A DNA stretch of 64,000 nt from Halobacteriota archaeon. Lineage in GTDB: Archaea; Halobacteriota; Syntropharchaeia; DAOWMC01. The DNA lies in contig JAXHUQ010000001.1 of NCBI GenBank assembly GCA_034189535.1, positions 67 through 64,066 of the forward strand, given 5' to 3'. The first letter of the stretch is position 1. The number at the start of each line of letters is the position of its first letter. The position numbers and the translations under genes were made by a program. Shown here one piece after another: positions 7,479-42,800 of the stretch. The notes under the pieces were generated by a model. It worked only from the letters and a program-made list of their open reading frames with translations. It did not search any database and was not told the origin of the DNA.

Positions 7479-10262
7479 TTGGGAACGAAAACGAGATCAA
7501 TTCTCGGTGAGCTTAGTTTGACAAGACGTTCGTTCACTAAGATCACCGCAGCTGTTGCGGCTACTGCTGCAATGTATAAGGGATTTGGCAAACTCGCTAA
7601 ATACGCAAAAGATACCGGTTACATGGACGATGTGATGGTAGAAGCTGCAGACACTGCTAAAACAGAGCAAGTGAAGAGTATCTGCTCTTTTTGCTCGGTT
7701 GGCTGTGGATATATCGGCGTTGTGAAAGATGGAGTCTTCACTGGAATGGAACCATGGGAAGATCACCCCATAAATCAGGGTGGATTGTGTTCAAAAGGTA
7801 CGGCATTGGTAGATGTCACCAACTCTGAAAAACGACTGAAATATCCGATGGAGAAGGTAGGCGGTAAGTGGAGAAGGATTACTTGGGACGAAGCCATAGA
7901 GAAAGTTGGCACTCAGCTAACAAGCATAAGAGATACTTATGGCCCCGATTCTGTCTTCATGTGCGGACTTGTTCACGGATCAAATGAAGAAGCGTATATG
8001 TTCAGAAAGTTTGGTATGCTATTCGGGACGAACAACATCGACCACCAGGCTAGGATATGTCACTCAACGACTGTAGCAGGTCTTCTGAACACCTTCGGAC
8101 ATGGTGCGATGACAAATACAATTATCGCCATGCAACACGCAAAATGTCATTTCTTCTTTGGATCGAATGCAGCTGAGGCACATCCTGTCTTCATGCAGAA
8201 GATACTTGATTCAAAGGATCGGGGTGCTAAGATCGTCGTTGCGGACCCGCGATTTACAAAAACGGCTGCTAAGTCTGATTTCTACGTTAGGTTCAGGCCC
8301 GGTTCGGATATCGCATTCCTTTACGGCCTCATAAATGTGATACTCGAGAACGGATGGCAAGATCAAGAGTACATCGACAACAGAACCTATGGATTTGAGT
8401 ATGTAAAAGAGGCTGTGAAAGGCTATACCCCTGAAGTAGTTGAGAAGATAACCTGGGTAAGTGCCGACGACTTAAGAAAGGTTGCTGAGATGATCGCAAA
8501 GAATAAACCGAGTAATATCATCTGGTCGATGGGAGCAACCCAACACAGTGTGGGTTCTCAGATCATTCGAGCTGCGGCAATATTGCAGTGTATCCTTGGT
8601 AACCAGGGAGAATGGGGTGGAGGTTGTATACCAGTCCGTGGACATTGTAACGTCCAGGGTGTAACTGATATGTGTGTCCTGTCTCACTTCTTACCAGGGT
8701 ATTACGGCGTAACAAGTGAAGGTTCGTGGGATTGGTATTCGAAGGTCTTCACAGATACGCCAAGTACATCAGGCTCCATTACATTCGATGAACTCAAGGG
8801 GAGATTTGCAACCTACAATGGCGAGAGCATGATGACCAAGATCGGCTTTGCTGTCTCAAGATGGTATGAAGGGGTCTTGATGCCCGAATCTGATATTGAC
8901 CAGCCCCATAATATCAAAGCTGCAATCCTATGGGGTGAAGCCACAAGCTCGATTACCGAGATGAAGAGGGAGAAAGAGGCGATGGAGAAACTGGACTTGC
9001 TTGTTATCGTCGATCCATTCCCGACAAGCGCTTCTGCAATGCCTGATAGAGCTGATGGGATCATACTGTTACCTGCAGCGACAAGGCAGGAGGGTACCGG
9101 TAGTGTGACAACCACCGGAAGAGAGTGGCAATGGAGAGATGTTGTTGTACCGCCTCTCTACGAGAGCAAGACTGACATGGAGATATTCCAGCTTCTCGCA
9201 AATAAACTGGGTTTCGGTGCTCATTTCGATTACAGTAGCATAGAAGACGTGACCCGGGAGATAAACCTCGCATGCAGGCCAATTGGTCTTCAAGGGCAGA
9301 CACCTGAGCGGATGAAGAAGCAGAAGGCGAACGCCCATACATTTGAGACTGAGTATGGAAGAGCTGTAGGCGGTCCTTGTGATGGCGAATATTGGGGATT
9401 ACCGTGGCCATGCTGGACGACTGATCACCCTGGAACTCCGATACTTTACAATGACAACGCTCCGGTAATGGAAGGAGGGCATGATTTCAGGGCAAAGTGG
9501 AAGTATCCTGACGATGAGCCCAATGCAGGAGAGGAGATTGTAAGGGGCAACCTACCACCATCAGGTACGGGAGGCACCATACATTGGACATATAATTACG
9601 CAAAGGATCCATCTGGTGAGGTTAACAGACAGGCCCTCAGCGAAGGAAACCCGCCGACAGGTAGAGGAAGGGCTATGCTGAGAGTAGCCGGTTGGACTGA
9701 TGAGGTCCCCGTACACAGAGAGCCACTGGAGAGTCCCGAACCGGATCTTGTTGCAGCTTATCCTACTTATGAAGATAAGACGTTCTACAGGATACCAACC
9801 AATTTCAAGACTGAACAGCAGAGATCGATCGCTGAAGGACGTCACATTAAATACCCAATAGTACTTACAACAGGAAGACAGGTTGAGCATCACGGTGGAA
9901 GCGCTCAGACCAGAGGATCAAAATATCTGGCCGAACTTCAACCTGAGATGTATGTGGAGATAAACCCCGCACTAGCTGCTGATAAAGAGATCAAGCACTG
10001 GGACTTCGTCTGGGTTGAGTCTGCAAGAGGGAGATGTAAAGTAAGAGCCTATGTGACAGACAGAGTCAACGAGAAGACAGTCTTCATGCCATACCATTGG
10101 GCAGGTATCTTCGAGGGCGAATCATATGAAGACAGGTATCCTGATGGTTCCGCAGAGTTCAAAATTGGGGATTCAGCAAACATCATAGCTTCAGCAGGAT
10201 ATGACGAACAGACACAGATGCAGGAGACCAAAGCTGCTCTGGTTAATATCTATAAGGCGTAG
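7479..10262 (+). CDS. fdhA: Formate dehydrogenase catalytic subunit (Mo/W-bisPGD), Tat-exported, Cys-type rather than selenocysteine
   Basis: Tat motif 'TRRSFTKI'; N-terminal Fe-S motif 'CSFCSVGCGY'; 'HQARICHSTTVAGL...GHGAMTN' aligns with FdhF 'QARV-U-HGPSVAGL', with a TGT Cys codon at 8058-8060. No in-frame TGA over 927 aa. Confidence 0.8.
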   Translation: MGTKTRSILGELSLTRRSFTKITAAVAATAAMYKGFGKLAKYAKDTGYMDDVMVEAADTAKTEQVKSICSFCSVGCGYIGVVKDGVFTGMEPWEDHPINQGGLCSKGTALVDVTNSEKRLKYPMEKVGGKWRRITWDEAIEKVGTQLTSIRDTYGPDSVFMCGLVHGSNEEAYMFRKFGMLFGTNNIDHQARICHSTTVAGLLNTFGHGAMTNTIIAMQHAKCHFFFGSNAAEAHPVFMQKILDSKDRGAKIVVADPRFTKTAAKSDFYVRFRPGSDIAFLYGLINVILENGWQDQEYIDNRTYGFEYVKEAVKGYTPEVVEKITWVSADDLRKVAEMIAKNKPSNIIWSMGATQHSVGSQIIRAAAILQCILGNQGEWGGGCIPVRGHCNVQGVTDMCVLSHFLPGYYGVTSEGSWDWYSKVFTDTPSTSGSITFDELKGRFATYNGESMMTKIGFAVSRWYEGVLMPESDIDQPHNIKAAILWGEATSSITEMKREKEAMEKLDLLVIVDPFPTSASAMPDRADGIILLPAATRQEGTGSVTTTGREWQWRDVVVPPLYESKTDMEIFQLLANKLGFGAHFDYSSIEDVTREINLACRPIGLQGQTPERMKKQKANAHTFETEYGRAVGGPCDGEYWGLPWPCWTTDHPGTPILYNDNAPVMEGGHDFRAKWKYPDDEPNAGEEIVRGNLPPSGTGGTIHWTYNYAKDPSGEVNRQALSEGNPPTGRGRAMLRVAGWTDEVPVHREPLESPEPDLVAAYPTYEDKTFYRIPTNFKTEQQRSIAEGRHIKYPIVLTTGRQVEHHGGSAQTRGSKYLAELQPEMYVEINPALAADKEIKHWDFVWVESARGRCKVRAYVTDRVNEKTVFMPYHWAGIFEGESYEDRYPDGSAEFKIGDSANIIASAGYDEQTQMQETKAALVNIYKA

Positions 10263-10273
10263 GGGGCTAAAAG

Positions 10274-10786
10274 ATGAAATTCGTAATAAATATTGAGCGA
10301 TGTATCGATTGCGGTGGTTGCTGGGTTGCATGTAAACAGGCAAATGATGTCGATGAGGAGATCCAAAGAATCAGAATAGTGACAGTAGATGAAGGTGTTG
10401 CCGGGGAGAAGAGTATACCTGTCCCTTGTATGCACTGTAGTCAGCCTGCCTGCATGAATGTATGTCCGGGAGAAGCGATAAGCAAGAGATCCGACGGAAT
10501 CGTTCTTGTAGATCAGAGCAAATGCATCGGATGCAGGTACTGTAATATGGTGTGTCCATTCGGATCTCCACAGTTCAAAGAGTCCGGAAGTAAGATGAAC
10601 AAATGCACATACTGTGTTGAGAGGATAGACGCGGGACTCAGACCTGCGTGTGGTATCTTCTGTTCGACAAAGGCACTGTACGTTGGAAAATCTGAGTCTG
10701 ATATTGATTCTCACGCAACAAAGATCGGTGCTAGAAAGCTTGTCGAGATAACCGACCCGGATGTGTACATAAAAGGGAACATTTGA
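10274..10786 (+). CDS. fdhB: Formate dehydrogenase iron-sulfur subunit (4x[4Fe-4S] ferredoxin-like)
   Basis: Four Cys clusters (CIDCGGCWVAC, CMHCSQPACMNVCP, CIGCRYCNMVCP, CTYC...C...C); lies 11 nt after fdhA. Confidence 0.75.
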   Translation: MKFVINIERCIDCGGCWVACKQANDVDEEIQRIRIVTVDEGVAGEKSIPVPCMHCSQPACMNVCPGEAISKRSDGIVLVDQSKCIGCRYCNMVCPFGSPQFKESGSKMNKCTYCVERIDAGLRPACGIFCSTKALYVGKSESDIDSHATKIGARKLVEITDPDVYIKGNI

Positions 10787-10787
10787 G

Positions 10788-11315
10788 GTGAAAGAGATGA
10801 ATAGAAAACAAACAATAGCCTTCATGGCATCGATGATTGCACTTTTGGCTATAGGGTTTGCCAGTTCTGTCTCCGCTGAGACCTTCGGAGAGCACCATGC
10901 ATCAATAGGGCCTTCAATACCAGCCGATCCGACGAACGAAGATTGTCTTAAATGTCATTCGTCGATGCTCAAGGAGGGAGATACTGAAGGAGTAAAAGCA
11001 TTCCACATAAAACATGTGGAGACTCTGAGTATGAGTTGCATTCAGTGTCACAAAGTAGATGAAGAGTTACCAACTCTCAAACGGCTTGTTTCAGAGGACA
11101 CTTGTGTGCCCTGCCACGAAGAAGGCAGCATGGGTCGTGAGATCTTTACATCAGCAGATGACGATATGCAAACGACAACTGACGATAAGGAAACGACTAC
11201 TTCAGACACTACAACAGTTGGAGACGATGACGAAGAAACTCCGGGATTTGAGGTGATCTTCGCTGTGACAGGACTTCTTGCAGTCGCGTATCTTGTACTT
11301 AGAAGAAACAAGTGA
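10788..11315 (+). CDS. Secreted tri-heme c-type cytochrome with a Thr/Asp-rich linker and PGF-CTERM archaeosortase-A sorting signal
   Basis: Signal peptide; three CxxCH motifs (CLKCH, CIQCH, CVPCH); C-terminal 'TPGFEVIFAVTGLLAVAYLVLRRNK' (PGF, then TM helix, then basic tail). Start overlaps the fdhB stop. Confidence 0.75.
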   Translation: MKEMNRKQTIAFMASMIALLAIGFASSVSAETFGEHHASIGPSIPADPTNEDCLKCHSSMLKEGDTEGVKAFHIKHVETLSMSCIQCHKVDEELPTLKRLVSEDTCVPCHEEGSMGREIFTSADDDMQTTTDDKETTTSDTTTVGDDDEETPGFEVIFAVTGLLAVAYLVLRRNK

Positions 11316-11436: not shown

Positions 11437-11748
11437 AATGAGAGAGGAAGGGCGACTGCCGGTAGCAATCTTACATAGATTGTGGCTGAGGAAAGTCCCC
11501 CCACCATCTGGACACACGAACACCGATTGGTGTAGGGCGAGAGTCTTGGCTCTGGCACAGAAACGATACCACCGCATATATATGCAATGATACAGAAATG
11601 TTGAGGTCTTATGTTGGTGGGTGGAACGGCGAAACCTCGTGGGTGCAAGCGAAAAGGGCAGATAAGGCGTCCAGACGATGCTCTTTAAAATATGCGCTAA
11701 GATGAATGTCGCCTCGAACAGAAGGGGGCTTACTCTCCTCACTCGGGT
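11437..11748 (+). ncRNA. rnpB: RNase P RNA (archaeal type)
   Basis: Universal CR-I 'GAGGAAAGUCC' at 11488-11498 and CR-V 'ACAGAAGGGGGCUUAC' at 11718-11733; CR-IV-like 'GGUGGGUGGAACGGCGAAACCUCGUGGGUGCAAGCG'. The ends are approximate. The minus-strand ORFs called here are spurious. Confidence 0.75.
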
Positions 11749-11878: not shown

Positions 11879-12589
11879 ATGGTCGAATATAAACTCGGCA
11901 TAAGCGGATTGGATGATGTGATAGGGGATGTGAGGGGCGGATCCAATATCATGCTGATGGGACCTCCAATGAGTAAAAAAGAGGTTATTATCAATAACAT
12001 CGCTTATCAGGGCCTTAAGACAGGGGAATCCTCTATATTTATTTCTACAGGAGAATCCGGCGAGAGTATAATTCGTTGGTTCAAAGATAACGGAAAAGAT
12101 ATCAATGGTTATATCGACAGGCTTGGTGTTATCGATTGCGTATCAAAGACTCTCGGGCTCAACGTCGAGGATACCGAATCTATAAAGAGGATATCTTCGC
12201 CGGTAAATCTGACCGGTATCAGTGTAAGTATTACTAACTTTTTTGAAGAATTCTGGATGAAGAAAGGAATCCAGAAATCAAGGCTTTGTGTGGATTCTCT
12301 CTCAACGATACTTATGTACTCAAATCTGCAGACTGTCTTCAGATTTCTCCATGTCCATACCAGGAGGATCAAGACTGCAGGAGCTCTTGGGGTATATATC
12401 ATCGAGAGTGGTATGCATGATGAACAGACAATAACCACTCTAAAACAACTTTTTGACGGAATCATCGAGATAGAAGAAGAGAACGAATCGTACTTTATCA
12501 GGGGTGTTGGGTTGACAAAAAAACCAACAAAGTGGTTTGAGTACGAGGCAGACGGTGCAGAGATGATCGTTAAACATAAGGAGAGGTGA
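11879..12589 (+). CDS. KaiC/RadA-like RecA-superfamily protein with a degenerate P-loop (probably inactive)
   Basis: 'GISGLDDVIG..GGSNIMLMGPPMSKKEV' has KaiC-type architecture, but the Walker A GxxxxGK[ST] is replaced by GPPMSKK. Confidence 0.5.
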   Translation: MVEYKLGISGLDDVIGDVRGGSNIMLMGPPMSKKEVIINNIAYQGLKTGESSIFISTGESGESIIRWFKDNGKDINGYIDRLGVIDCVSKTLGLNVEDTESIKRISSPVNLTGISVSITNFFEEFWMKKGIQKSRLCVDSLSTILMYSNLQTVFRFLHVHTRRIKTAGALGVYIIESGMHDEQTITTLKQLFDGIIEIEEENESYFIRGVGLTKKPTKWFEYEADGAEMIVKHKER

Positions 12590-13767
12590 GGATGATTGAG
12601 ATCGGAATCCCTAAAATAGATGATTATCTAAAAGGTGGGTTACCAATCGGAAAATCACTCCTGTATTATATTCATCCGGGTGTGGAAGGGGACATATTCG
12701 GCATGCAGACTCTTTACACCAACCTTAGGAAGGGGCATAAAGGGATATGTATAACTACGACAGCCAGTCCTGAGACTTTACGGGAGAGGTTCAGAGAGTA
12801 TGACTTTGACCTTGAGAAGTACGAAGAAAATTTTGAGATTATCGACGCGTACTCGGCTTTGATCGGTGCAAACTCGTCTGAAAAATATGTTGTTGACAAC
12901 CCGGAGGATATTAAAAACATCGATAAAGTGATAAGAGAAGCAATTGAGGATTCTTCTGGAGGGCTTATTATCCATGGATCTCTCTCGAATATTATGGATA
13001 TGTGCGGTGAAGAGGAGACGCTTGAGTATATAGAAGGCTGGAACAAGAGTATGCTATTATATGACGGCGTCGGGATATACAATTTTACAGCCTGGCCCTA
13101 CTCAGATGAGACCATTAAGAAGGTGAGGGATGAGTTCTTCAATGCCGTTGTTAAGATAGGCGGGGTTGCTGAGAAGGTGATATTCGGGCAATACTATTCT
13201 GTCTCCAAGTCCGACTGGACGGATGGTAATCAGAGCCATTCAATTCTATTCAAGATAATTAAGCCGGGAGGTGTAAGGGCTTACCTTCCGAAGATTCTCG
13301 TCACAGGTCCTTTCAATGCAGGAAAATCGACATTTATACATTCGCTTTCGACAAGATCCGTATCTGTTGACAGATTCGGGACGACTGTTGCTCTGGATCA
13401 CGGTCATGTGGACCATAACGGTTTCTCGGCAGATATCTTCGGAACTCCGGGTCAGGAGAGGTTCGACCCGATCCTTAAGACGCTTGGTGGTGAGGCAATG
13501 GGTGTTTTTCTTGTGATAGATTCGACCAAACCTGATGAGTGTGAAAGAGCCAGACAGATGCTTGACATTACTAAGACATTTGGGCTACCATCTGTTGTAG
13601 TTGCAAACAAGCAGGACATTCCAGGTGCATCAAGTGTTGATGATTTAAAGAGTGAGATGGCCATCTTGGATGAACAGATACCTATAGTACCAGTCGTTGC
13701 AAAGGATGGTAAGGGTGTTATTGAAGCGTTTGAAATGCTTATAGATCGGATTATGGTGAGGCTATGA
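12586..13767 (+). CDS. Fusion protein: N-terminal degenerate KaiC/RecA-like domain plus C-terminal small Ras-like (MglA/Arf-like) GTPase
   Basis: N-term 'GIPKIDDYLKGGLPIGKSLLYY' is KaiC-like without a GKT P-loop. C-term has G1 'GPFNAGKST', G2 Thr 'FGTTVA', G3 'FGTPGQERF' and G4 'ANKQD'. Confidence 0.65.
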   Translation: MRMIEIGIPKIDDYLKGGLPIGKSLLYYIHPGVEGDIFGMQTLYTNLRKGHKGICITTTASPETLRERFREYDFDLEKYEENFEIIDAYSALIGANSSEKYVVDNPEDIKNIDKVIREAIEDSSGGLIIHGSLSNIMDMCGEEETLEYIEGWNKSMLLYDGVGIYNFTAWPYSDETIKKVRDEFFNAVVKIGGVAEKVIFGQYYSVSKSDWTDGNQSHSILFKIIKPGGVRAYLPKILVTGPFNAGKSTFIHSLSTRSVSVDRFGTTVALDHGHVDHNGFSADIFGTPGQERFDPILKTLGGEAMGVFLVIDSTKPDECERARQMLDITKTFGLPSVVVANKQDIPGASSVDDLKSEMAILDEQIPIVPVVAKDGKGVIEAFEMLIDRIMVRL

Positions 13768-14129
13768 GTACGGTAAAAGATATGCTTGATAAGCTTTTGG
13801 ATGACCTCAAGAGGGTTGGAAATATCGAAGCTTCGGCAGTGGTCTCGCGTGATGGCCTTCTCATGGCATCGGATATCCCCGATGGTGTCCATGCCGAGAC
13901 ATTTGCTGCAATGAATGCGACGATGATGGGTGCTGCAGAGACGGCCATATCGGAACTTAATAAAGGAATCCCTGACAGGGTCATAATCGAATCAAAAGAA
14001 GCTAAAGTAATAGTCACTGGCGCCGGTCAGAAGGCACTTTTAGTTGTCATGTCGAGGCCCGAGGCCGGACTAGGATTGGTTCTCGTAGAGATGGAGAAGG
14101 TAACAGAGAAAATTAAAGGGTTGCTGTAA
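13764..14129 (+). CDS. Roadblock/LC7 (MglB-like) domain protein, paralogue 1
   Basis: 121 aa with the typical 'VEASAVVSRDGLLMASDIP...ETFAAMNATMMGAAE' Roadblock fold pattern; start overlaps the GTPase stop. Confidence 0.75.
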   Translation: MSTVKDMLDKLLDDLKRVGNIEASAVVSRDGLLMASDIPDGVHAETFAAMNATMMGAAETAISELNKGIPDRVIIESKEAKVIVTGAGQKALLVVMSRPEAGLGLVLVEMEKVTEKIKGLL

Positions 14130-14220
14130 AAGTTGGTCTTGATATTAAAAAATTAAAACTTGCCGAAAAAATCATGAGTAAAGAGATGCATAAACAATAT
14201 GGATATTCAAGTGTGATAGT

Positions 14221-14787
14221 GTGAAGGATAAAGTTTATTCTCAATTCTGGTACGAATCAGAAAAAGGTGCTGTGATAAGTAATACTATTAAAGGCAGATA
14301 CGTCATAACCCCACATAGCTTCCTACATATAGTTACGGAAGAGTACAAGAAAGTTGCAGGAAAGGGGGCAGCTGTAATACTTTATGCAATGGGTTTTGAG
14401 GATGGAATCAAGATAGGTCAGGCTATGTCAGATCAATTCGAGATCCATAACATAAAAAAATATAAAAAGGCAATCTCAGCATTTTCCGGGGTGGCGCAAG
14501 GTGCTGTAAATTTCTTTTTGGATTATTTTAAATGGGCAACCGTACTTGATCTTGATATGGATCTGGAAAATATGCGTGTCGTGATAAAGCTATCAGACCA
14601 TGTATTCACGAGATACCAAGAAGGAAAAGAAGAGTCCTACTGCGATTGGATACGTGGATGGATCGCGGGTTTGTTTACAGTCCTTCTTGATGAAGGCATG
14701 GCCTGTCAAGAGACCAAGTGTAAGACACTTGGTGATGAATATTGTGAATTTACTATTGGTAGAAAGGAGGAGATTCTACTTGGCTAA
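14221..14787 (+). CDS. V4R-domain protein (Bet3/TRAPP-like fold)
   Basis: C-terminal V4R Cys motif 'CQETKCKTLGDEYCEFTI'. Confidence 0.6.
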   Translation: MKDKVYSQFWYESEKGAVISNTIKGRYVITPHSFLHIVTEEYKKVAGKGAAVILYAMGFEDGIKIGQAMSDQFEIHNIKKYKKAISAFSGVAQGAVNFFLDYFKWATVLDLDMDLENMRVVIKLSDHVFTRYQEGKEESYCDWIRGWIAGLFTVLLDEGMACQETKCKTLGDEYCEFTIGRKEEILLG

Positions 14788-15262
14788 GACTGACCTCAAC
14801 AAAAATATCTTTGACGTCTACGGTGAGTACGCCATATATCACCCAGACCTTATTATAGTGAATCGTAAGGTCTCAAGTAGTATCATTGGCTCCATTTCAA
14901 AGACAGTCGATTATAATATTGGAAAGAGGATAGGAAAGATAGTTGCAGAAGAATGCAAAAAACTTTTCAAGAACAATCCACTGGATGCCTCTTTTGAGAT
15001 TATTGAATACAGCGGATGGGGGCAGATAAAGATCGACAGGAGTGAGAATGTTGTGAAGGTGCGTAACTCACTCGTCTCAAGGTACTATCTAAAACATGAA
15101 GGTGCTTCAAATGATACGATTGATGACATTATGAGTGGAATAATTTCCGCTATATTCGAAGAGATCGAGGGGAAGGAGTGCAAAGTTACCGAAACCAAGT
15201 GTATAGCGAAAGGCGATGAATACTGTGAATTTACGTTAAGTTTTGGTAATTTAAACGAATAA
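14780..15262 (+). CDS. V4R-domain protein, second copy; start re-assigned to TTG with a GGAGG Shine-Dalgarno 8 nt upstream
   Basis: V4R motif 'CKVTETKCIAKGDEYCEFTL'. The track ORF 14600..15262 overlaps the previous gene in another frame. AGGAGG at 14766-14771 precedes TTG at 14780. Confidence 0.55.
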   Translation: MAKTDLNKNIFDVYGEYAIYHPDLIIVNRKVSSSIIGSISKTVDYNIGKRIGKIVAEECKKLFKNNPLDASFEIIEYSGWGQIKIDRSENVVKVRNSLVSRYYLKHEGASNDTIDDIMSGIISAIFEEIEGKECKVTETKCIAKGDEYCEFTLSFGNLNE

Positions 15263-15339
15263 AATAGCAAAGTTTATATTATGTGTGTCCTTTGAATTGG
15301 ATACATCGAGAAATAGTATGCGGGGTCGCATGGGTTAAA

Positions 15340-15705
15340 ATGACAACGACAAAAGAGATGCTTGAAAAACTTTTGGATGACCTCAAGAGGGTTGGAAATA
15401 TCGAAGCTTCGGCAGTGGTCTCGCGTGATGGCCTCCTTATGACATCAGATATACCCGGTGGCGTCCATGCCGAGACATTTGCTGCAATGAATGCGACGAT
15501 GATGGGTGCTGCAGAGACGGCCATATCGGAACTTAATAAAGGAATCCCTGACAGGGTCATAATCGAATCAAAAGAAGCGAAAGTTATTGTTACAGGCGCA
15601 GGTCCAAAAGCACTTTTGGTTGTCATGGCGAGGGCAGAGGCCGGACTAGGTCTTATTCTGGTCGAGATGGAGAAGGTAACAGGGAAGATCAAAGAACTGC
15701 TCTAA
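15340..15705 (+). CDS. Roadblock/LC7 protein, paralogue 2 (near-identical to paralogues 1 and 4)
   Basis: Protein sequence nearly identical to the 13764 and 17399 copies; start at the internal Met 'MTTTKEM'. Confidence 0.7.
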   Translation: MTTTKEMLEKLLDDLKRVGNIEASAVVSRDGLLMTSDIPGGVHAETFAAMNATMMGAAETAISELNKGIPDRVIIESKEAKVIVTGAGPKALLVVMARAEAGLGLILVEMEKVTGKIKELL

Positions 15706-15854
15706 AGGTGTTGATCAGCTTTCTTTTTTGTACCACAAATTTATATATAAATAGTTCCATATAGCTACAAGGACTTTAGTTATCCTGTTGAGGGGATATA
15801 CCGAGCCATATATATGATTGTCGTATTGATCAGATATATCTGCAAGGTGAAATA

Positions 15855-16223
15855 ATGCCAACTATTATTGAGATGTTGGAAAAGATCTTGATGGATCTTA
15901 AGATGACAGGGGAGGTGAGCGGTTGTGCTATCGTCTCACGAGACGGGCTGTTGATGGCCTCAGATATTCCAAAAGAGGTGGATGGTGGTACATTCGCTGC
16001 TATGAGTGCAACCATGCTTGGTACAGCAGAGACCGCTGCTTCCGAGCTCGTTGAAGGAGTACCTGATAAAGTCATCGTTGAATCCCCCAATGGTAAGATA
16101 ATCATCTCCGGTGCTGGCTCCAGTGCTCTTATTGTCTGTACAACACCATCTGAAGCGAAGCTAGGTTTGGTGCTTGTTGAGATGGCACGTACTTCGGAAA
16201 AGGTCAAAAAAGTGTTGTTATAG
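15855..16223 (+). CDS. Roadblock/LC7 protein, divergent paralogue 3
   Basis: 'CAIVSRDGLLMASDIP...GTFAAMSATMLGTAE' is the same fold pattern at about 50% identity. Confidence 0.7.
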   Translation: MPTIIEMLEKILMDLKMTGEVSGCAIVSRDGLLMASDIPKEVDGGTFAAMSATMLGTAETAASELVEGVPDKVIVESPNGKIIISGAGSSALIVCTTPSEAKLGLVLVEMARTSEKVKKVLL

Positions 16224-17402
16224 GTGATGTTGTTGATCGAAACAGGGATAGAGCATCTTGACAGAAGTCTTGGTGGAGGCATACCTAATGGAAATACACT
16301 TCTTTATTACATACAGCCAGGTATCGAAGGAGAAATATTCGGTATACAGACGCTATTTCATAACCTGGAAAAAGGGTACAAAGGAGTCTTTATAACATCT
16401 TCGGCTCACCCTTCTGCAATTAAAGAATACTTTCTTGGCTTTGGATGGGATGTAGACAAGTACGAGGGTAAATTTGCTATGGTTGACGCATACTCTGCAC
16501 TTGTGGGTGCAGATTCCACTGAGAGATACGTGGTCGAGGATCCTGAGAATATTGAGAACATCAATGAGACCATCTCCGAAGCGATGTTGCATTTTCCCGG
16601 TGAGGTGATCGTATGTGGGTCACTCTCAACAATAATGGACCTGTGTGGTGAAATAGAGACGCTGAGATGTATTGAGAACTGGAATAAGATCATCTGCGTA
16701 AACGACAGCGTAGGAATCTACAATTTTACAGCGTGGCCTTACTCACAGGAGACGATTAAAAAGATTAGGGATGAGTACTTCAATGCCACGATAAAAGTTG
16801 GAGGAATAGCCGAGAGGGTCATCTTCGGTCAGTATTACGGGGTGCCAAAGGTGGACTGGACTGACACAATTATAGAATCCGTTTTATTCAGGATATACCG
16901 TCCTGGCGGAGTAAGGGTATATCTACCAAAGATACTGGTGACGGGGCCATTTAACGCTGGGAAATCTTCATTCATCCGCTCGCTTTCATCAAGGTCTGTT
17001 TCTGTTGATAGGTTTGGTACAACAGTGGCATTAGATCACGGTCACGTTGATCATAAAGGTTTCTCCGCCGAGATATTCGGAACGCCCGGTCAAGAGAGGT
17101 TCGACCCGATCCTTAAGACGCTTGGTGGTGAAGCAATGGGTGTTTTTCTTGTGATAGATTCGACAAATCCTTCAGAATTTTCTCGCGCAAAACGTATGCT
17201 CGACATCACCAAGACGTTTGGATTACCATCGGTTATTGTCGCAAACAAACAGGATATGCCCGGTGCATCAAGCATCGAATCTATCAGAACGCAGATGAAA
17301 CTTCCCGAAGACATTCCCATAGCACCAACGGTTTCAAAAGAAGGTGAAGGGGTAAAGGAAGCGTTTGAGATGCTTATTGATCGTATTATGGGAGGATTAT
17401 GA
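16224..17402 (+). CDS. Second fusion of a degenerate KaiC-like domain with a small Ras-like GTPase (paralogue of 12586..13767)
   Basis: Same architecture, with 'GPFNAGKSS', 'FGTTVA', 'FGTPGQERF' and 'ANKQD'. A stretch of about 75 nt (17093-17167) is identical to 13458-13532 apart from one mismatch. Confidence 0.65.
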   Translation: MMLLIETGIEHLDRSLGGGIPNGNTLLYYIQPGIEGEIFGIQTLFHNLEKGYKGVFITSSAHPSAIKEYFLGFGWDVDKYEGKFAMVDAYSALVGADSTERYVVEDPENIENINETISEAMLHFPGEVIVCGSLSTIMDLCGEIETLRCIENWNKIICVNDSVGIYNFTAWPYSQETIKKIRDEYFNATIKVGGIAERVIFGQYYGVPKVDWTDTIIESVLFRIYRPGGVRVYLPKILVTGPFNAGKSSFIRSLSSRSVSVDRFGTTVALDHGHVDHKGFSAEIFGTPGQERFDPILKTLGGEAMGVFLVIDSTNPSEFSRAKRMLDITKTFGLPSVIVANKQDMPGASSIESIRTQMKLPEDIPIAPTVSKEGEGVKEAFEMLIDRIMGGL

Positions 17403-17764
17403 GTACAGTAAAAAATATGCTTGATAAACTTTTGGATGACCTCAAGAGGGTTGGAAATATCGAAGCTTCGGCAGTGGTCTCACGTGATGGCCTCCTCATG
17501 GCGTCAGATATTCCTGGTGGTGTCCATGCCGAGACATTTGCCGCAATGAATGCGACGATGATGGGTGCTGCAGAGACGGCCATATCGGAACTTAATAAAG
17601 GAATCCCCGACAGGGTCATAATCGAATCAAAAGAAGCCAAAGTAATAGTCACTGGCGCCGGTCAGAAGGCACTCTTGGTTGCCATGTCGAGGCCCGAGGC
17701 AGGGCTCGGACTAGTTCTTGTTGAGATGGAGAAGATATCGGAAAAATTGGCGGAGGTGCTCTAG
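17399..17764 (+). CDS. Roadblock/LC7 protein, paralogue 4
   Basis: About 95% nucleotide identity to 13764..14129. Confidence 0.75.
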   Translation: MSTVKNMLDKLLDDLKRVGNIEASAVVSRDGLLMASDIPGGVHAETFAAMNATMMGAAETAISELNKGIPDRVIIESKEAKVIVTGAGQKALLVAMSRPEAGLGLVLVEMEKISEKLAEVL

Positions 17765-18427
17765 ATGGGGGATACGGAAAATTCCATACCATTTTTTGAT
17801 AGGGATGAGGAGTCGAGACACTTCAGGATAGGAGGTGTACCACATGCCCTGATCGATAACGAGACAATTGCAGAATTATATGTACTTCTTATCAGATCAA
17901 TCGGAAAAGAGATGACAAGAAGATTTTTTTACGATTCGGCCAAGAAAGCCGCGTTTAATCTGCAGAAAAGGATGATTGAAACATCTGATGCAATAACTGA
18001 TGATCCGGACAAGATCGTTGAGAGAATATCTATGTTTCCATATTATCTCTCCAGTTATGGATATGGTACTGGTGAGACCATAAAATCAGATGCGAGTTCA
18101 GGTAAGTATGTTTTCAGGATAGAACATTCCTTCATATCAGACGAGTTGAAGACCAGAGGTCTTGAAGATCCTACATGTTCATTCATAGCCGGTATCTTTG
18201 CCGGACTTGCCGAAGCTTGGACTGGAGAGGAGTACTCCTGTAGAGAGCTACATTGCGCCTCGAACGGATCTCCATTCTGTGATTTTGAACTCTTCCCCGG
18301 ATCTCTCACCGACAAGTTCTTCGGAGAGATTGAAAACATAAAAGACGTACTATCAAAACTGGATATTGCGGTGGAATCGATACATGAAACCATGCAGACA
18401 AAAAATGTGAGATCAAAAGTCAAATAA
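17765..18427 (+). CDS. V4R-domain protein, third copy
   Basis: C-terminal 'CRELHCASNGSPFCDFELF' V4R Cys motif. Confidence 0.55.
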   Translation: MGDTENSIPFFDRDEESRHFRIGGVPHALIDNETIAELYVLLIRSIGKEMTRRFFYDSAKKAAFNLQKRMIETSDAITDDPDKIVERISMFPYYLSSYGYGTGETIKSDASSGKYVFRIEHSFISDELKTRGLEDPTCSFIAGIFAGLAEAWTGEEYSCRELHCASNGSPFCDFELFPGSLTDKFFGEIENIKDVLSKLDIAVESIHETMQTKNVRSKVK

Positions 18428-36586: not shown

Positions 36587-38203
36587 TCATACTCCGTCTA
36601 CTTTCTTGAAGTAAATTAGGAAATGAATTACCAGAAGAAAGACTGAGATAAATGCAAGAATGGGCAGATTAAACCACCTAAAGGAACTTTGTGAGCCAAC
36701 AAGAAGTGTTATACCCTCCCTTATATCAACATCGTCATAAGATATCCATATGTTGGCCAGGTATGTTCCGGATGAAGTGGATGAATGTGGAGTAACTTGT
36801 ATACTATGTGTAACAGTGCTTCTTGGTTGAATCAACCTTTTGTTTTCGTCAATTTTTACAGCCCAGTGAGCCGGTAGCTCCATATTTATGTCAATTTCTA
36901 CCGGATCATCGTTAAAGTTTGTTACTCTGAAGGTGACCTCACCGGATCTACCCGGAAGAAGGCTCGGAGAACTTATATCGGAGATTCTTATCTTATCCAA
37001 AGACTCATCGCTTGTCGGCTCATAATAATTGAATATATTCATCTGCTTGACCGGCCAATAGATATACAAGGAGCAATCCTCTAAAACCCATGGGATCTCA
37101 TAGTGAATCATATTTTTCTCATTTGGGATCAGATCATCAAACCTCCATTTCACGAGAGGGCCGTCGAGAAGTATCATCGGTTCTGTCTCAAACAATATCT
37201 CCCCTACAGATGGCGCCATTTCTTTCGGGATCTGCTCAATGATCTCGAGAGTCCTGATCGGTATTTCAGAGTTCTCGATATTAAGTGAGACTGATGTTAC
37301 ATTCTTCTTATTATCAATTACTACCGATCTCTTTATAATGGGGTGGCTATAATCGCTGTTTTTTGAACTGACTCTTAAGATGAAGAAGTTTTCATCTTCA
37401 AAGATCTCGTTACCCACTCTTATCAAAACAAGATAATCTTTGATTGATACATCCGTTGGAATAGAGACTATTATATTCAACTTTTTGGATTCGTTCGGGG
37501 GAATAGAGAGTGAGTCTGGTATAATTCTTACCATCTCACTCTCATCTTCCGAATCAATTCTTTCGATATTCGTATGAACATTCAGTTCTAAGGTCTCATT
37601 TGTTGGGTTACCGATCTCAATACTACTGAGAACGCAGTCTCCTGGCAGGGTCTCTATGAGTACGGGAATCTTCAAAAATTCAAGCACCAGTTCATCCTGA
37701 TTCGTAGGTATTATCTTCTTCTCTTCCAGGGTGTAGGTAAAGCCGTCAATGTTGTAATTCTTCGGTTTAAGTATTATCGAGAAGCTTCTAGTCACCTCTG
37801 AAGTTGTGAAATTCTCATAGGTAGCTTTTGATGTCGCATTGTACATTCCAATGGAATTATTCCCCGAGTTCCAGCTCTTTACGAACGTGACAACTCCAAA
37901 TGCAGGTATCTCTGTTGGATCAAAGATGAGTGTATCTACCAGATAACCTGAACTGTTGGTTATGTTTATCTGCGCTGTGGCGTTTATGGCAATGTTTCCT
38001 GTGTTCTCAATTACAACTATGAAATTTGTACTCATCAGACTTATTACAGGATCGTTATCCATATAAAGGTCTATCACCTCGGCATTTATTGTCGGAAGAA
38101 CACTCACATTAACAGGCACAGTATGAGCATATGCTTGTGAGATGAGCAGAAGAACAAAGAATAAAATTACAAGTACCTTTCTCATAAGAACACCAACATT
38201 CAT
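36587..38203 (-). CDS. Secreted cell-surface protein with a C-terminal TM anchor
   Basis: Signal peptide, many N-x-S/T sequons, and a C-terminal TM 'ILAFISVFLLVIHFLIYFKK'. Confidence 0.55.
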   Translation of the reverse strand: MNVGVLMRKVLVILFFVLLLISQAYAHTVPVNVSVLPTINAEVIDLYMDNDPVISLMSTNFIVVIENTGNIAINATAQINITNSSGYLVDTLIFDPTEIPAFGVVTFVKSWNSGNNSIGMYNATSKATYENFTTSEVTRSFSIILKPKNYNIDGFTYTLEEKKIIPTNQDELVLEFLKIPVLIETLPGDCVLSSIEIGNPTNETLELNVHTNIERIDSEDESEMVRIIPDSLSIPPNESKKLNIIVSIPTDVSIKDYLVLIRVGNEIFEDENFFILRVSSKNSDYSHPIIKRSVVIDNKKNVTSVSLNIENSEIPIRTLEIIEQIPKEMAPSVGEILFETEPMILLDGPLVKWRFDDLIPNEKNMIHYEIPWVLEDCSLYIYWPVKQMNIFNYYEPTSDESLDKIRISDISSPSLLPGRSGEVTFRVTNFNDDPVEIDINMELPAHWAVKIDENKRLIQPRSTVTHSIQVTPHSSTSSGTYLANIWISYDDVDIREGITLLVGSQSSFRWFNLPILAFISVFLLVIHFLIYFKKVDGV

Positions 38204-38264
38204 ATATTGAAAAGTGACATTTCACTAGCTCAATTTATATTACAGAAAAATTAAAAATTACTCC

Positions 38265-38945
38265 TTATTTGTACTCTTTTTCGTATTTCAATCTGTTACT
38301 ACCTTTTTCAGTCAATTTTAAACTACTAGGAGCTGTTACTTCTTCTCTTCTTCTTGATCTTATGAGGAAAAATACCAGGATGACAATAATTGCTAGCAGT
38401 ATTAGTGTGGTATTGCTTGCAAAGAACTCACTCATCATACCGGTGGACATTAAGGGTTCTTCACCAACCACTTCCACTGAAATTGGTATTCTGAATCCGG
38501 TCCAGGCGGCTACTCCGGGAGAGTCTTTAGCAGAGACATCCGCATCTCTGAAACAGACCCAAGTCCTCCTCTGGTACCAGTGTCCGGGGATTGGTGCGTC
38601 GGTAGAATTGACTCCATAGAGACCTGGTTTGGAATTTTCGGGAATCTCTATCGTAATTGTGAAGACTTCACTCTCACCTTCACTGAGTGTATATTCATTC
38701 GGCTCTATTTTGATCCAGGAAGTGATATTCATCTCTTCCGTATCCCCATTAAAAGGAGTGTACAGCGCATACCAGTAGCCATATCTTGTATCCTTGTCCC
38801 CAGTCAATTGTACTGTAAAAGTGAGTATTTCTCCCGGTTCCCCTCTCCAGCCGTAAGCGGTTATTGTATCTGTTTGTGTGGCTGATGCGGCTTGTATAGA
38901 TGAAAGAATAATCAACAATATCACAATGGATCTTATAGCTTTCAC
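38265..38945 (-). CDS. Secreted surface protein with a C-terminal TM anchor and basic tail
   Basis: Signal peptide; C-terminal 'LILLAIIVILVFFLIRSRRRE'. Confidence 0.5.
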   Translation of the reverse strand: MKAIRSIVILLIILSSIQAASATQTDTITAYGWRGEPGEILTFTVQLTGDKDTRYGYWYALYTPFNGDTEEMNITSWIKIEPNEYTLSEGESEVFTITIEIPENSKPGLYGVNSTDAPIPGHWYQRRTWVCFRDADVSAKDSPGVAAWTGFRIPISVEVVGEEPLMSTGMMSEFFASNTTLILLAIIVILVFFLIRSRRREEVTAPSSLKLTEKGSNRLKYEKEYK

Positions 38946-39052
38946 TGTATCTCTTTCTCCTTATATATCCACTCGGTAGATACAATATATAAACATTTCT
39001 CCCTTACCTCTTAAAAAGAGAAGAGGTACGGAGTGTTACCTCAGAAGATTAT

Positions 39053-39691
39053 TTAAGCTGCTGAACACTCCGTATAAAAGCTTCCTGTATAATCTGATGC
39101 CGATTCGGTACTCTGCGGTATGTCAAGACAGAGGAAAAGTGACTGGTTTCCTCCTGGTGCGAGACTTGATATCTGTGGACTTCCCGGCGAACTTTCGACC
39201 ATTGCAGTACTAATCGGACTCACGGCGCTACCATGAATACCTGCAGTACAGTTGTAGGTCTCTTGAGTGGACAGGTCAATATCCGTACTCGTTGTTGCCG
39301 ATGTTATATCGGTCCCGTAGAAGTATACATCCATCGCAACAGTTCCACTGTTGTTCAGTGTGACTTCATTTACACCACTAGAGGCGTCTTGCGCCCCACC
39401 AGCGTAAATTTGGGCATCTCCGGAATCATAGCATGTCGGCTCGTTGTCATATGACCCTGACTGTCCCGTGAAGTTCCACATTGCAATCTCGGTCCAATCA
39501 CCTCCAAACTCTCTGAAGTCGACAATACTGGTGTTCCTCTCTACGGTGACATTCTGAGTCACCGTATCTGCCCAAGTTGGCATCCCAAAAGCGACTAGTA
39601 GTAATAGCATAATCAAGGCTAAAATTGTGCATGTTTCAGTTTTCTTATTCATTAATTTCACCCCCTCCACAATTTGATGTATTATGGCCAT
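39053..39691 (-). CDS. Secreted protein homologous to the C-terminal domain of the adjacent giant surface protein
   Basis: Signal peptide. The C-terminal 'SPQISSLAPGGNQSLFLCLDIPQS...' parallels the giant protein's 'SPQISSLGQGTFKDIYLYLDIPLS...'. Confidence 0.5.
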   Translation of the reverse strand: MAIIHQIVEGVKLMNKKTETCTILALIMLLLLVAFGMPTWADTVTQNVTVERNTSIVDFREFGGDWTEIAMWNFTGQSGSYDNEPTCYDSGDAQIYAGGAQDASSGVNEVTLNNSGTVAMDVYFYGTDITSATTSTDIDLSTQETYNCTAGIHGSAVSPISTAMVESSPGSPQISSLAPGGNQSLFLCLDIPQSTESASDYTGSFYTECSAA

Positions 39692-39868
39692 TTAAAATTA
39701 ATTTTCCTAATTTATCCGAGTTTACATCACCATACAGATTAGAAATATGGCCATTTTTCTATGCATATATGTCTTATCTTATAGTATTTATAACTTGTGC
39801 TAAGGTACTAATATTGCTCTGAGATAACAATATTGGCTTTGATTATAAACACTTGCATAAAATGTGAT

Positions 39869-42800
39869 TCAGTAGGCTGCACTATCGACAAAAAAAGTGG
39901 CTGAATACTTACCTGGGGCAGCAGATAGAGGTATGTCAAGGTAGAGGTAAATGTCCTTAAAGGTACCTTGCCCCAGAGATGATATCTGTGGGGATATGGT
40001 AGATGCGTTTGCAACATAGATGCTAACGTCATCCCAGTATATCGTTGTTGCATTCCCATCCTCTCGAATAACTATCTTCTCATTTGACGATGGATCAATT
40101 ATGTTCGATCCATTTGTAAAGTTTGATGAGTATATCCAGACGTCAATATTTACACTTCCCGCGTTGTATATTGTGCAGGTCGGAGTGCCACTTGAGGAGT
40201 TCTGAGTGGGGACAGTGACTGCGGTTCCGAGTTCTCCTGTCGGAAAAGACCATCCTGAAAGGTTTGCTGTTGAACTACTGTTTCTTACCTCGACGAGTAC
40301 CTGCGATGAGGTGTACCAAGTAACATTCCAATCATGCAGGGTTGGAGTATAAGATGTATCTGTCGTGGATAGATTTGCTTGTAGTTTTATTGAGGTTGCG
40401 GATGAAGCGCATGAAGAGATGTCATAACCGGAATTTGCCTGGGCAGAGGTGATTGTACAGAGTACCGAATCATCTGAGGCATCTAAAATTTTGTAGGTGA
40501 TATTCGTATCCTGTGTTGCATTTATCGTATCGTTTGCATAAAACCTGTCCCAACACCCAAGAGAAGACGGAACAATTGGGGGGGATGTAATCTCTCCCGT
40601 GGAGTTATATATCGGATCAGAAGTGTAATCAACATCAACATAGGCCTGGGTACATCTCACCCTACTTCCCTGTAACAATAAATAATATCTTGAAAGACTA
40701 GTCCCTATCTCCAGATCATCCACTTCATCCCATGTCCAGGGTTGTGAAGTATATGGATTGTTTACCACTTCCTCTGAATAGTTATGCCAACTATCATCAT
40801 TACTATCAATTTGGTGGTAATCACCATCGTAAGTTGTGCCATAAGTCCTCAGGGAGGCTCTGGCACGACCGTCCCTGTTATTGTAGTACCTCTGGACACG
40901 ATAGTGAAGTGTGATATTATTAATTGTCCCACTGCCTTCCGTATGATCTTCGACATTGTATAGGTCTCTTGCCCAACTACCCCATCCGGAACCGCCTCCT
41001 GATCTATATACAAATGTGGAAGTATCATCAGGAGTGGCTTCATCTACCTTGTCCCAATGATCACCGGAGGACGGATCTTGGTCTAGGGCTGTCTCGCTTC
41101 CTTGAGCGTTAGGCCTTAAAGTTTCTATCCCGGACGAAGTATTACCCTTCAAATTCACAGCTCCACCACTTACCATGATATTTGATGACGAATCAATCCC
41201 CGAAGATCCGCCAAAATAGTCCATCCAGTGCTTCCGGTGCTCCTCCGCACCAAGATCTACAGTTGGTGTCAAAGAGACGTATTGGCGAAATCCTGTCCAA
41301 TTGACCGCACGTTCTATTAGAGTTTCCCCATCAGTATTAGTATTCCTGTAAATGAAACCCAAATGGACAATCCTTTGTCCGGTATTCACCGAGTTCAGAT
41401 CCGAGGTACCTGCCTCAATCACTTGAATGCTCGAGTAGGAGGTTTCACCTTCTCTGTCTGCAAGGGAATCTCCTATGCTACCTGTTTTTGAAGGAGATGC
41501 CATATAATCGGAACCTGTATATACTGCTAGACCTCCGGTAGGGAAAGGACTGGTAATGTAGTGGGTATTATCCAAAATTACAATCCCGTCATTATTATTT
41601 TCTTCTTTTACTTCATTTGTGAACTTAAGATCAAAAACCTCGAGGCCGGAGGTGTACGTCTGTTCAGTTGCACCCCCCTCGGGGCCGGTAATGATCGGTA
41701 TATTCTCGTTATCAAGATATGACCTCAACTTTTCACCAAGTCCATTGGCATCCATATGTGGCCTTCCATATGCGATCATGTCATATCCTGAGAGATCCGT
41801 TGCTCCACTTGCAACATCTCCATCGTCAACAAGTGTTACGTTGTAACCAGCGTCCTCTAAGATACCCCTAATATTGGTCGTTGCGGCATGAGTGGATGAG
41901 TCGTATACCTCTGCAATATCGTATATCTTTTGCCTCGTTGAATCGAAATCACTAACCGTGCTTGCACTGGAATTCCCATAATATAAATAAGCTGATATGG
42001 TAGAAGATGCAGGAATCTCTGTCACGTTGATCCAGATCACACTCTGACCGGATGTGTTCCATCTCTCTATATAGTGAGGGATGAGCGTCTCCGTATCGGT
42101 CGTTGAGTTGTAGAGTGTGAATCTTGTATCGTTTCCGTTTTGATCTGCCTTGGTGTAGTTAAAGTTACTTGAGTTGAGCGTAATCAGAATCTGATAACCT
42201 GTCAATTTTGATCCCGAGTTCTCTGTTATGTTGATCAGCATCCTATAGCCCCATGATTCGTTCCACCAGTGATCCCCGACGGCATAATTGTGTGCATAAT
42301 CGGAATCGCTACCAAAGCTGAACTGAAGGTGGTGCTTTCCCGGAGTTAATGCCCTGCACGTGAAGTATCCTGTCTCGTTGCAAGAATAATCGGAATAATA
42401 GACCTTTTTTCCGTCGTATTGGGGACTCAAGATCCTGTTCCCACATCTAAGCTCAAGGAACTCAAGATCCTTTGTAAAGAAGGTATTGTTTACGGGAGTG
42501 ATGGTCAGATCAGCACTTCCAATTGTAGTGAATTTTACCGTCCAGTTTCCTCCAACCGCCGGATAGGACTGTACGTTTATGATACTGATATCTGCCTCAA
42601 CTTCAAATGACTGATCAGAAAGTCTTGGAACGTTCCAGATTATCTTATCTAATATCTCGTTACCATTGGTATCTATTATGCTGACATTGAACCTCGGATC
42701 GTCTGTAACTTCCTCTCTTGAGCTATTGTTCAACCAGTAGAGCTTTATATCCGACTTCTCGATTTCACCGATATCAGTAGAAGTGGTAACATTATGATAA

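Follow-up and report, generated by a model that had tools for sequence, protein, structure and literature searches.

A predicted KaiC-like pseudo-ATPase fused to an MglA-type small GTPase in a Roadblock-containing gene cluster of a Halobacteriota archaeon

MglA-type small GTPases with their MglB (Roadblock) regulators are among the closest described counterparts of the system reported here, a gene cluster in 64,000 nucleotides (nt) of DNA from a Halobacteriota archaeon (contig JAXHUQ010000001.1; this whole stretch is called the window) that encodes two copies of a protein joining a KaiC-like domain to a small GTPase. MglA groups 2-5 have GTPGQ in common, carry a Thr in place of the arginine finger of group 1, and have genes that adjoin those of MglB/Roadblock homologs in which an Asp-Gly pair is conserved (Wuichet & Sogaard-Andersen 2014, PMC4316618). 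Archaeal Group 4 MglA lacks the insert found between G1 and G2 in bacterial MglA, and the survey took in only proteins of <240 amino acids (aa) (PMC4316618). Inactivated KaiC (iKaiC) domains have been proposed as archaeal signalling hubs (Makarova et al. 2017, cited in PMC5847659).

Signalling roles in archaea have been proposed both for small Ras-like GTPases and for KaiC-like ATPases, and the literature searched leaves the two unconnected. No description or experimental study of a small-GTPase fusion of KaiC-like or iKaiC proteins was found in that literature, with Makarova 2017 as a possible exception, and in full-text searches KaiC was nowhere mentioned alongside MglA, MglB, Roadblock or a fusion to a GTPase.

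The cluster (11879-18427, + strand) contains ten tightly packed genes: the two fusion genes (kG1, kG2), a stand-alone KaiC-like gene (K), four Roadblock genes (R1 to R4) and three V4R-domain genes (V4Ra to V4Rc). It is read here, as a reasonably probable function, as an archaeal GTP switch of the MglA/MglB type whose scaffold is a KaiC-like pseudo-ATPase and which would serve as a signalling hub. An earlier note made from the window's sequence alone (the original prediction) did not include the flanking Roadblock/MglB and V4R genes, which are the key to this interpretation.

A widespread fusion and its two domains

Searched against 5.8 billion proteins, the fusion had 1453 matching clusters, the best 120 of which were all 386-403 aa long, covered ≥98% of the query and were 56-92% identical to it; names among these 120 were 'ATPase domain-containing protein', 'GTP-binding protein' and 'small GTP-binding protein'. 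Relatives were encoded by 469 stretches (one genome per GTDB species). Locus counts refer throughout to the best 79 of these, which carried 82 fusion genes, and neighbours were counted by mapping the window proteins onto all open reading frames (ORFs) of the 79 loci. These came from Methanoperedens, ANME-2 (anaerobic methanotrophic archaea; Methanocomedens, Methanogaster), other Methanosarcinales, Methanocellales, Hydrothermarchaeota and unclassified 'Halobacteriota' metagenome-assembled genomes (MAGs), the closest relative among them (88% identical) being from a tar-biofilm MAG. When representatives at 50% identity were scanned exhaustively with HMMER, 116 clusters reached E ≤ 1e-30, and at least 74 of the best 150 HMMER clusters aligned end to end at 27-48% identity. 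The clusters included one Thermoplasmata MAG member and one with the JGI name 'signal recognition particle receptor subunit beta/KaiC/GvpD/RAD55 family RecA-like ATPase'. A profile search with diverse members returned the same Methanoperedens/ANME-2 group as its best 120 matches and did not widen the taxonomy. The original prediction had called this an uncommon architecture and had proposed to follow its taxonomic distribution; with the numbers of matches, stretches and full-length clusters given above, and with members across methane-cycling archaea, Hydrothermarchaeota and one Thermoplasmata MAG, the fusion appears instead to be a large, old and widespread archaeal family. Two contigs labelled 'Anaerolineales bacterium' (L010) and 'Nanoarchaeia archaeon' (L040) carry an operon of the ANME-2 type (K, fusion, Roadblock) and are probably binning contamination in MAGs; the coordinates of L010 almost match those of L009 and L011.

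Both fusion ORFs were present where they had been predicted, the second copy was a real gene 68% identical to kG1, and the possibility that the two domains are separate genes was not borne out. The ORF was uninterrupted in the 79 independent genomes, and the two window copies agreed with each other. Two homologs look 'split' in public contigs, but L080 (4880-5000) has a frameshift, probably a long-read indel, within a continuous coding sequence, and the break in L081 (330-345) is a scaffold gap, a run of N; both were rejected as cases of separate KaiC and GTPase genes. Because at least 120 near-full-length homologs and the 79 loci preserve the reading frame, an annotation or assembly artefact, with two genes joined by sequencing error, is given next to no credence. 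Downstream of the fusion, L081 has two KaiC-like genes whose Walker A and B motifs are intact.

The domain-boundary scan with hidden Markov models that had been suggested placed KaiC at the N-terminus and the Arf and Ras Pfam families at residues 236-389 (E about 1e-12). Pfam KaiC (PF06745) covered residues 5-124 of kG1 (E 1.2e-17) and 5-139 of kG2 (E 1.2e-20), NCBIfam likewise gave KaiC matches, and kG1 divides into an inactivated KaiC/RecA domain (1-230) and a small GTPase (236-393). In a HMMER alignment with PH0284, the Walker A site of kG1 reads IHPGVEGD against GGPGTGKT, the Glu pair of the catalytic EE site aligns to Thr-Ala (within TTTAS), and VVVDS of Walker B aligns to IIHGS (within IIHGSLS); kG2 reads IQPGIEGE at the Walker A site and IVCGSLS at the Walker B site. 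The lack of GxxxxGK[ST] claimed for the N-domain was thus confirmed, with the P-loop Lys/Thr, the catalytic Glu pair and the Walker B Asp all missing. An AlphaFold2 (AF2) model of kG1, which answers another of the proposed checks, had a RecA-like alpha/beta fold of the KaiC type without a P-loop motif (49 homologs in the alignment; mean pLDDT 84.9, pTM 0.78). Ten-residue blocks of the N-domain scored 87-97, and disorder was confined to the interdomain linker (195-199) and to switch I of the GTPase (258-269). With the fold present and the catalytic motifs gone, the domain is to be classed as a structural member and an enzymatic pseudo-member of the single-domain KaiC/RecA ATPases; none of the residues needed for ATP hydrolysis is left in it.

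The substituted P-loop is fixed, P31, G32 and E34 being invariant in the 49 homologs (55-92% identity), and GK[ST] was missing from the KaiC P-loop in 61 of 62 representatives at 26-48% identity; the loss appears to be ancient. The Walker B Asp (DSLS) is kept in many distant members of the family and is Gly in the window's clade. Against orthologs in two related genomes, the ratio of nonsynonymous to synonymous substitution (dN/dS) was 0.03-0.05 for the N-domain and 0.05-0.09 for the GTPase domain, values that are approximate because dS is near saturation. Both domains are under strong purifying selection, and the KaiC domain is not decaying. The only member with an intact KaiC Walker A (P0362) has degenerate GTPase motifs, and GTPase motifs are also lost (G3 or G4 degenerate) in P0254, P0272, P0331, P0355 and P0360; some lineages may have exchanged activity in one domain for activity in the other. 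A KaiC-type timing or phospho-oscillator system might be suspected from the KaiC homology and from one database record in which a homolog is called 'circadian clock protein kinase KaiC', but it is contradicted because the ATPase and autokinase residues are missing. There is moreover a single KaiC domain, and a Pfam scan recognised no KaiB- or KaiA-like gene in the cluster, which leaves a clock highly improbable.

The C-terminal domain matched NCBIfam TIGR00231 small_GTP (E 2e-16, 60 bits vs. a cutoff of 42.5) and reached Der, EngB and Era of the same collection at sub-threshold level only. All motifs quoted in the original prediction were present (in kG1, G1 GPFNAGKST, G2 FGTTVA, G3 FGTPGQ and G4 NKQD), and G1, the Thr-Thr of G2, GTPGQ and NKQD were invariant in the 49 homologs. 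The domain has the G1, G2 Thr, NKxD and length (~160 aa) of the Ras superfamily, so that the claim of a complete motif set held except at G3, which is GTPGQ and not the textbook DxxGQ. Nearly all P-loop GTPases have Asp at the first G3 position; here the place is taken by an invariant Gly. What had been described as a likeness to DTPGQE is therefore more than that, the missing Asp being a diagnostic feature of MglA groups 2-5.

GTPGQ, the Thr-Thr of G2 and an adjacent Roadblock gene with an SRDGL motif are together the published features of MglB-coupled GTPases in MglA groups 2-5, and a Roadblock gene with the Asp-Gly pair lay within four genes of the fusion. The fusions, with 392-393 aa and two domains, are not single-domain proteins of <240 aa, and fell outside the MglA survey because of that size limit. 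By BLASTP the G domain was 25% identical to M. xanthus MglA over the whole domain (E 1e-9; query sequence checked against PDB 6hjh, E 1e-128). Arf/Arl outscored MglA in a PDB profile search with the G domain, and the G1-G2 insert of bacterial MglA was absent. The motifs taken together indicate an intact small GTPase of MglA type.

Conserved partners and gene neighbourhood

K lay directly upstream of the fusion on the same strand in 76/82 cases, and two further fusion genes were at contig ends; the four fusion genes without K were second copies, like kG2. A Roadblock gene lay directly downstream of 74/82 fusion genes, and 70/82 had both neighbours. These three genes, in the order K, fusion, Roadblock, form the conserved core, and the suggestion that the stand-alone KaiC-like gene before kG1 is its partner was upheld across the 79 loci. 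K of the DUF7504 type also adjoins the fusion in the distant members L083, L084 and L085. Among Methanocellales, K and the fusion in L029 are followed by SPFH/stomatin-like and NfeD-like membrane proteins, and the MAG of L014 holds a second fusion-Roadblock copy without K (L019); partners seem to be divided between paralogs in this group.

The window K matched Pfam DUF7504 (7e-26), Pfam KaiC (3e-14) and, in the PDB, SSO2452 (1e-7). Its P-loop is degenerate (GPPMSKKE); the Walker B Asp (LCVDSLS) and one catalytic-site Glu are still present. Orthologs of K (n = 77) have the motif G-P-P-M-S-G-K-[E/D], which is GxxxxGK with an acidic residue at the place of the Mg-binding Ser/Thr; the Walker B Asp is changed to Asn in 60/77, and the active-site Glu E59 is retained in 68/77. 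Because the P-loop Lys is kept, with an acidic residue for Ser/Thr and usually Asn at Walker B, K could bind nucleotide but would probably not turn it over.

The KaiC domain of the fusion might alternatively be a non-canonical sensor of nucleotide or phospho-ligand, with a composite site of PG-x-E-G and K at their interface coupling ATP/ADP sensing to the GTPase. The invariant P31, G32 and E34, a domain that does not decay (dN/dS about 0.03-0.05), the GxxxxGK and Glu kept by K, and the Walker B Asp of many distant members are consistent with such a sensor. However, the fusion is without the P-loop Lys in 61/62 representatives and without both catalytic Glu, its Walker B Asp is Gly in the window's clade, and K is itself acidic at the Mg-binding place and mostly Asn at Walker B. 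A sensor of this kind is considered unlikely.

All four R genes matched Pfam Robl_LC7 (E 2e-17 to 9e-12), and SRDGL was invariant in 85 Roadblock orthologs. R1, R2 and R4 were 87-93% identical as proteins (R2 vs. R1 90%, R4 vs. R1 93%), and R3 was 57-59% identical to the three. A family of DNA repeats with 73-88% identity (Table 1), together with the protein identities, points to a recent local Roadblock duplication, R3 being an older paralog. The R2 ORF is open from GTG 15283, and alignment favours ATG 15340 as its start.

V4Ra has four C-terminal Cys (C141, C162, C167, C175), V4Rc has four, and V4Rb keeps 3/4; the Cys arrangement of V4Ra and V4Rc is as described for PoxR and Thor-TRAPPC3. 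The V4Rb ORF is open from 14600, with an uncertain start at ATG 14735 or TTG 14780. V4R genes occupied the window position only in the closest relatives (L001, L002, L026), and one lay further downstream in L017. Among the 79 loci, V4R genes together with extra Roadblock copies and a second fusion were found only in L001, L002 and partly L026. The order R3-kG2 was repeated in L001 and L002, where the orthologous second fusion copies are under purifying selection; the kG1/kG2 duplication is older than that of R1/R2/R4, with both copies retained in L001 and L002.

Four-nt overlaps occur at K/kG1, where the K stop codon overlaps the GTG start of kG1 (alternative start ATG 12592), kG1/R1 and kG2/R4, and R3/kG2 and R4/V4Rc abut. 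kG2 is without a K gene of its own, R3 occupying the upstream place that K has at kG1. A sigma-70 promoter scan, with 15 sites vs. 16.6 expected, carried no information, which is no surprise in an archaeon. No PADLOC defence-protein model was matched by K, kG1, R1, V4Ra or V4Rc.

Table 1. Coordinates of the cluster genes, motif sites and other features of the window.
Feature	Position (nt)	Strand	Description
K	11879..12589	+	stand-alone single-domain KaiC-like, DUF7504 type, 236 aa
K P-loop	11960-11983	+	GPPMSKKE
K Walker B	12284-12304	+	LCVDSLS
kG1	12586..13767	+	putative dead KaiC + MglA-type GTPase fusion, 393 aa; GTG start 12586
kG1 Walker A site	12670-12693	+	IHPGVEGD
kG1 catalytic EE site	12754-12768	+	TTTAS
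kG1 Walker B site	12967-12987	+	IIHGSLS
kG1 G1	13306-13332	+	GPFNAGKST
kG1 G2	13375-13392	+	FGTTVA
kG1 G3	13438-13455	+	FGTPGQ
kG1 G4	13606-13617	+	NKQD
R1	13764..14129	+	Roadblock/LC7 (MglB-like), 121 aa, Pfam Robl_LC7 2e-17
V4Ra	14221..14787	+	V4R-domain protein, 188 aa, Pfam V4R 4e-12
V4Rb	14735..15262 (approx. start)	+	second V4R-domain protein, Pfam V4R 2e-10
R2	15340..15705	+	Roadblock/LC7
R3	15855..16223	+	divergent Roadblock/LC7, Pfam 9e-12
kG2	16224..17402	+	second fusion, 392 aa
kG2 Walker A site	16311-16334	+	IQPGIEGE
kG2 Walker B site	16608-16628	+	IVCGSLS
kG2 G1	16944-16970	+	
kG2 G3	17076-17093	+	
kG2 G4	17244-17255	+	
R4	17399..17764	+	Roadblock/LC7
V4Rc	17765..18427	+	V4R-domain protein, 220 aa, Pfam V4R 2e-11; last gene of the same-strand cluster
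DNA repeat family	13672-13971, 15248-15547, 17307-17606		
RNase P RNA	11440-11744	+	Rfam RF00373, 201.6 bits
Respiratory-like module	7479-11315	+	three genes
Surface/secreted proteins	36587-44188	-	large predicted proteins

Genes for YhbY/CRS1, ribosomal protein S19e and a PDCD5-like protein followed Roadblock on the same strand in 33-40/79 loci, and in the window the apparent 564-nt gap that precedes K is filled by an archaeal RNase P RNA gene. The RNase P-then-K order recurred in L001, L002, L013, L027 and L030 and was absent from 15 other loci tested; as conserved synteny with K it was rejected, being found in only five of the loci checked. These neighbours could be taken to tie the module to translation, as a ribosome- or RNA-processing-associated GTPase system. 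Against this, YhbY, S19e and the PDCD5-like (DNA-binding) protein are absent downstream in the window and in all distant members examined, RNase P fails in the 15 loci, and the G domain is of the Ras-superfamily/MglA type and coupled to Roadblock, with the ribosome-assembly GTPases Der, EngB and Era matching below threshold only. Housekeeping gene order in archaea frequently reflects inheritance and not function. The neighbours are read as inherited housekeeping synteny, and a ribosomal role is regarded as quite improbable.

Some family members lie in loci that resemble type IV pilus (T4P) loci, which is suggestive of a cell-surface connection. The order in L083 (Thermoplasmata) was Roadblock, fusion, K, an Ig-like secreted protein, T2SSE and T2SSF; in L017 (Hydrothermarchaeota) it was T2SSE, K, fusion and Roadblock, followed by genes for small membrane proteins and one V4R protein, and an intact KaiC gene lay upstream in divergent orientation. 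In L082 the fusion was directly preceded by four genes for proteins with class III (pilin-type) signal peptides, and before these came KaiC and a large protein. KaiC-family and Roadblock genes have been noted in archaeal T4P loci (Makarova et al. 2016, PMC4858521), the archaellum is regulated by the KaiC-like CirA and ArlH (PMC10983859), and T4P-dependent motility is reported to be controlled by bacterial MglA/MglB. No T2SSE gene was found within the 64-kb window.

In L085 (1-8910) the opposite strand carries four KaiC-family genes (one two-domain) and a gene for a DUF835 protein; K, the fusion and a further stand-alone small GTPase come next. Two proteins of 691 aa beside distant members were rejected as a shared neighbour, being unrelated (BLASTP E 0.28). 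Elsewhere in the window, the module at 7479-11315 resembles a respiratory one, with a 927-aa molybdopterin oxidoreductase whose N-terminus, read from the sequence, resembles a twin-arginine signal, a 4Fe-4S dicluster protein, and a c-type cytochrome (175 aa) that bears three CxxCH motifs (likewise read from the sequence) and PGF-CTERM, a sorting signal of archaea; in an ANME/Methanoperedens-like organism, a role in extracellular electron transfer would be fitting. The 36587-44188 region encodes proteins of 1439 aa with DUF2341 and 538 aa with NPCBM_assoc, and two of ~220 aa without a family match.

Proposed mechanism

If the cluster is a GTP switch of the MglA/MglB type on a KaiC-like scaffold, the dead KaiC domain and K would assemble as a homo- or hetero-oligomer like KaiC or ArlH and form a platform, not an enzyme. 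The tethered G domains would cycle between GTP and GDP states, and a Roadblock dimer would act on them as GTPase-activating protein (GAP) and/or guanine nucleotide exchange factor (GEF), as MglB does on MglA. In the window lineage the module would have been duplicated and three V4R proteins gained; these have a Zn/small-ligand-binding fold related to TRAPPC3/Bet3 and probably feed chemical input or act as adaptors. The output would be signal transduction to other cell machinery. Nearby T4P or archaellum-like assembly systems are the only recurrent hint as to which, so that the pilus or cell surface would be the best lead.

Several points weigh against this reading. One K-fusion copy without an adjacent Roadblock gene occurs in Methanocellales (L014, L025, L029, L071). 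The window and most of the 79 loci have housekeeping neighbours and no pilus genes nearby. The V4R genes fall outside the core mechanism because they are lineage-specific. The family is known from genes, alignments and models, and it is gene order and the usual behaviour of KaiC-like proteins that suggest oligomerisation of K with the fusion.

A more detailed version is tentative and rather unlikely as a whole. K and the fusion would form a KaiC-like hetero-oligomeric ring in which tethered MglA-type GTP switching replaces ATP turnover and Roadblock and V4R proteins make up a GAP/GEF platform, as a euryarchaeal, non-Asgard counterpart of Ragulator-Rag/TRAPP that links archaeal KaiC signalling to pilus-like or cell-surface control in methane-oxidising archaea. 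If the ring were real, the archaeal KaiC signalling network would be connected to small-GTPase control of pilus-like or cell-surface machinery in these organisms.

The fusion family physically joins a GTPase to KaiC with a Roadblock regulator alongside, and K, the fusion and Roadblock offer a defined trio for the regulation of archaeal MglA-type GTPases and for the role of dead KaiC domains. It is abundant in Methanoperedens, ANME-2, Methanocellales and Hydrothermarchaeota, which are important to the methane cycle and about whose regulation very little is known. A cluster of GTPase, Roadblock and V4R (TRAPPC3-like) genes outside Asgard archaea bears on the age of such GTPase platforms.

Comparison with described systems

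The components, the MglA-MglB pairing and the idea of inactivated KaiC as a signalling module were known already. New, Makarova 2017 possibly excepted within the literature searched, are the covalent union of KaiC and GTPase and the obligate second KaiC-like partner.

Elongator Elp4/5/6 and the RAD51 paralog complexes, which are rings of RecA-fold pseudo-ATPases, share only the fold with the KaiC-like proteins described here (9-15% identity), the ring being conjectural in the present case. PH0284, SSO2452, ArlH/FlaH and CirA are single-domain archaeal KaiC-like proteins with an intact Walker A, unlike the fusion.

The actinobacterial conservon (CvnA-D/Mfp) consists of a sensor kinase, Roadblock, DUF742 and an MglA group 2 GTPase. 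Like the present locus, it is a signalling cassette around a GTPGQ-type GTPase and Roadblock, often duplicated within a genome. The K/fusion locus differs in being archaeal, in having no histidine kinase or DUF742, and in having KaiC-like pseudo-ATPases and V4R proteins at the accessory positions.

Ragulator-Rag and TRAPP (PMC10933270, PMC2253512) likewise use a small GTPase, Roadblock and V4R/TRAPPC3-like four-Cys folds, and in the window all three folds are encoded in one same-strand gene cluster. However, the window GTPase is of MglA type and not Rab or Rag, the KaiC-like scaffold has no counterpart in those systems, there is no sign of membrane trafficking here, and V4R is confined to a narrow lineage.

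MglA groups 2-5 share with the fusion GTPGQ without the Asp, the Thr-Thr of G2 with no intrinsic Arg finger, and coupling to a Roadblock gene with Asp-Gly. The archaeal Group 4 further shares the lack of a G1-G2 insert and a distribution in methane-metabolising Euryarchaeota. The fusion differs from MglA in that its G domain is joined to a dead KaiC domain of ~230 aa, has an obligate second KaiC-like partner, and is marginally nearer to Arf/Sar than to bacterial MglA by sequence and structure.

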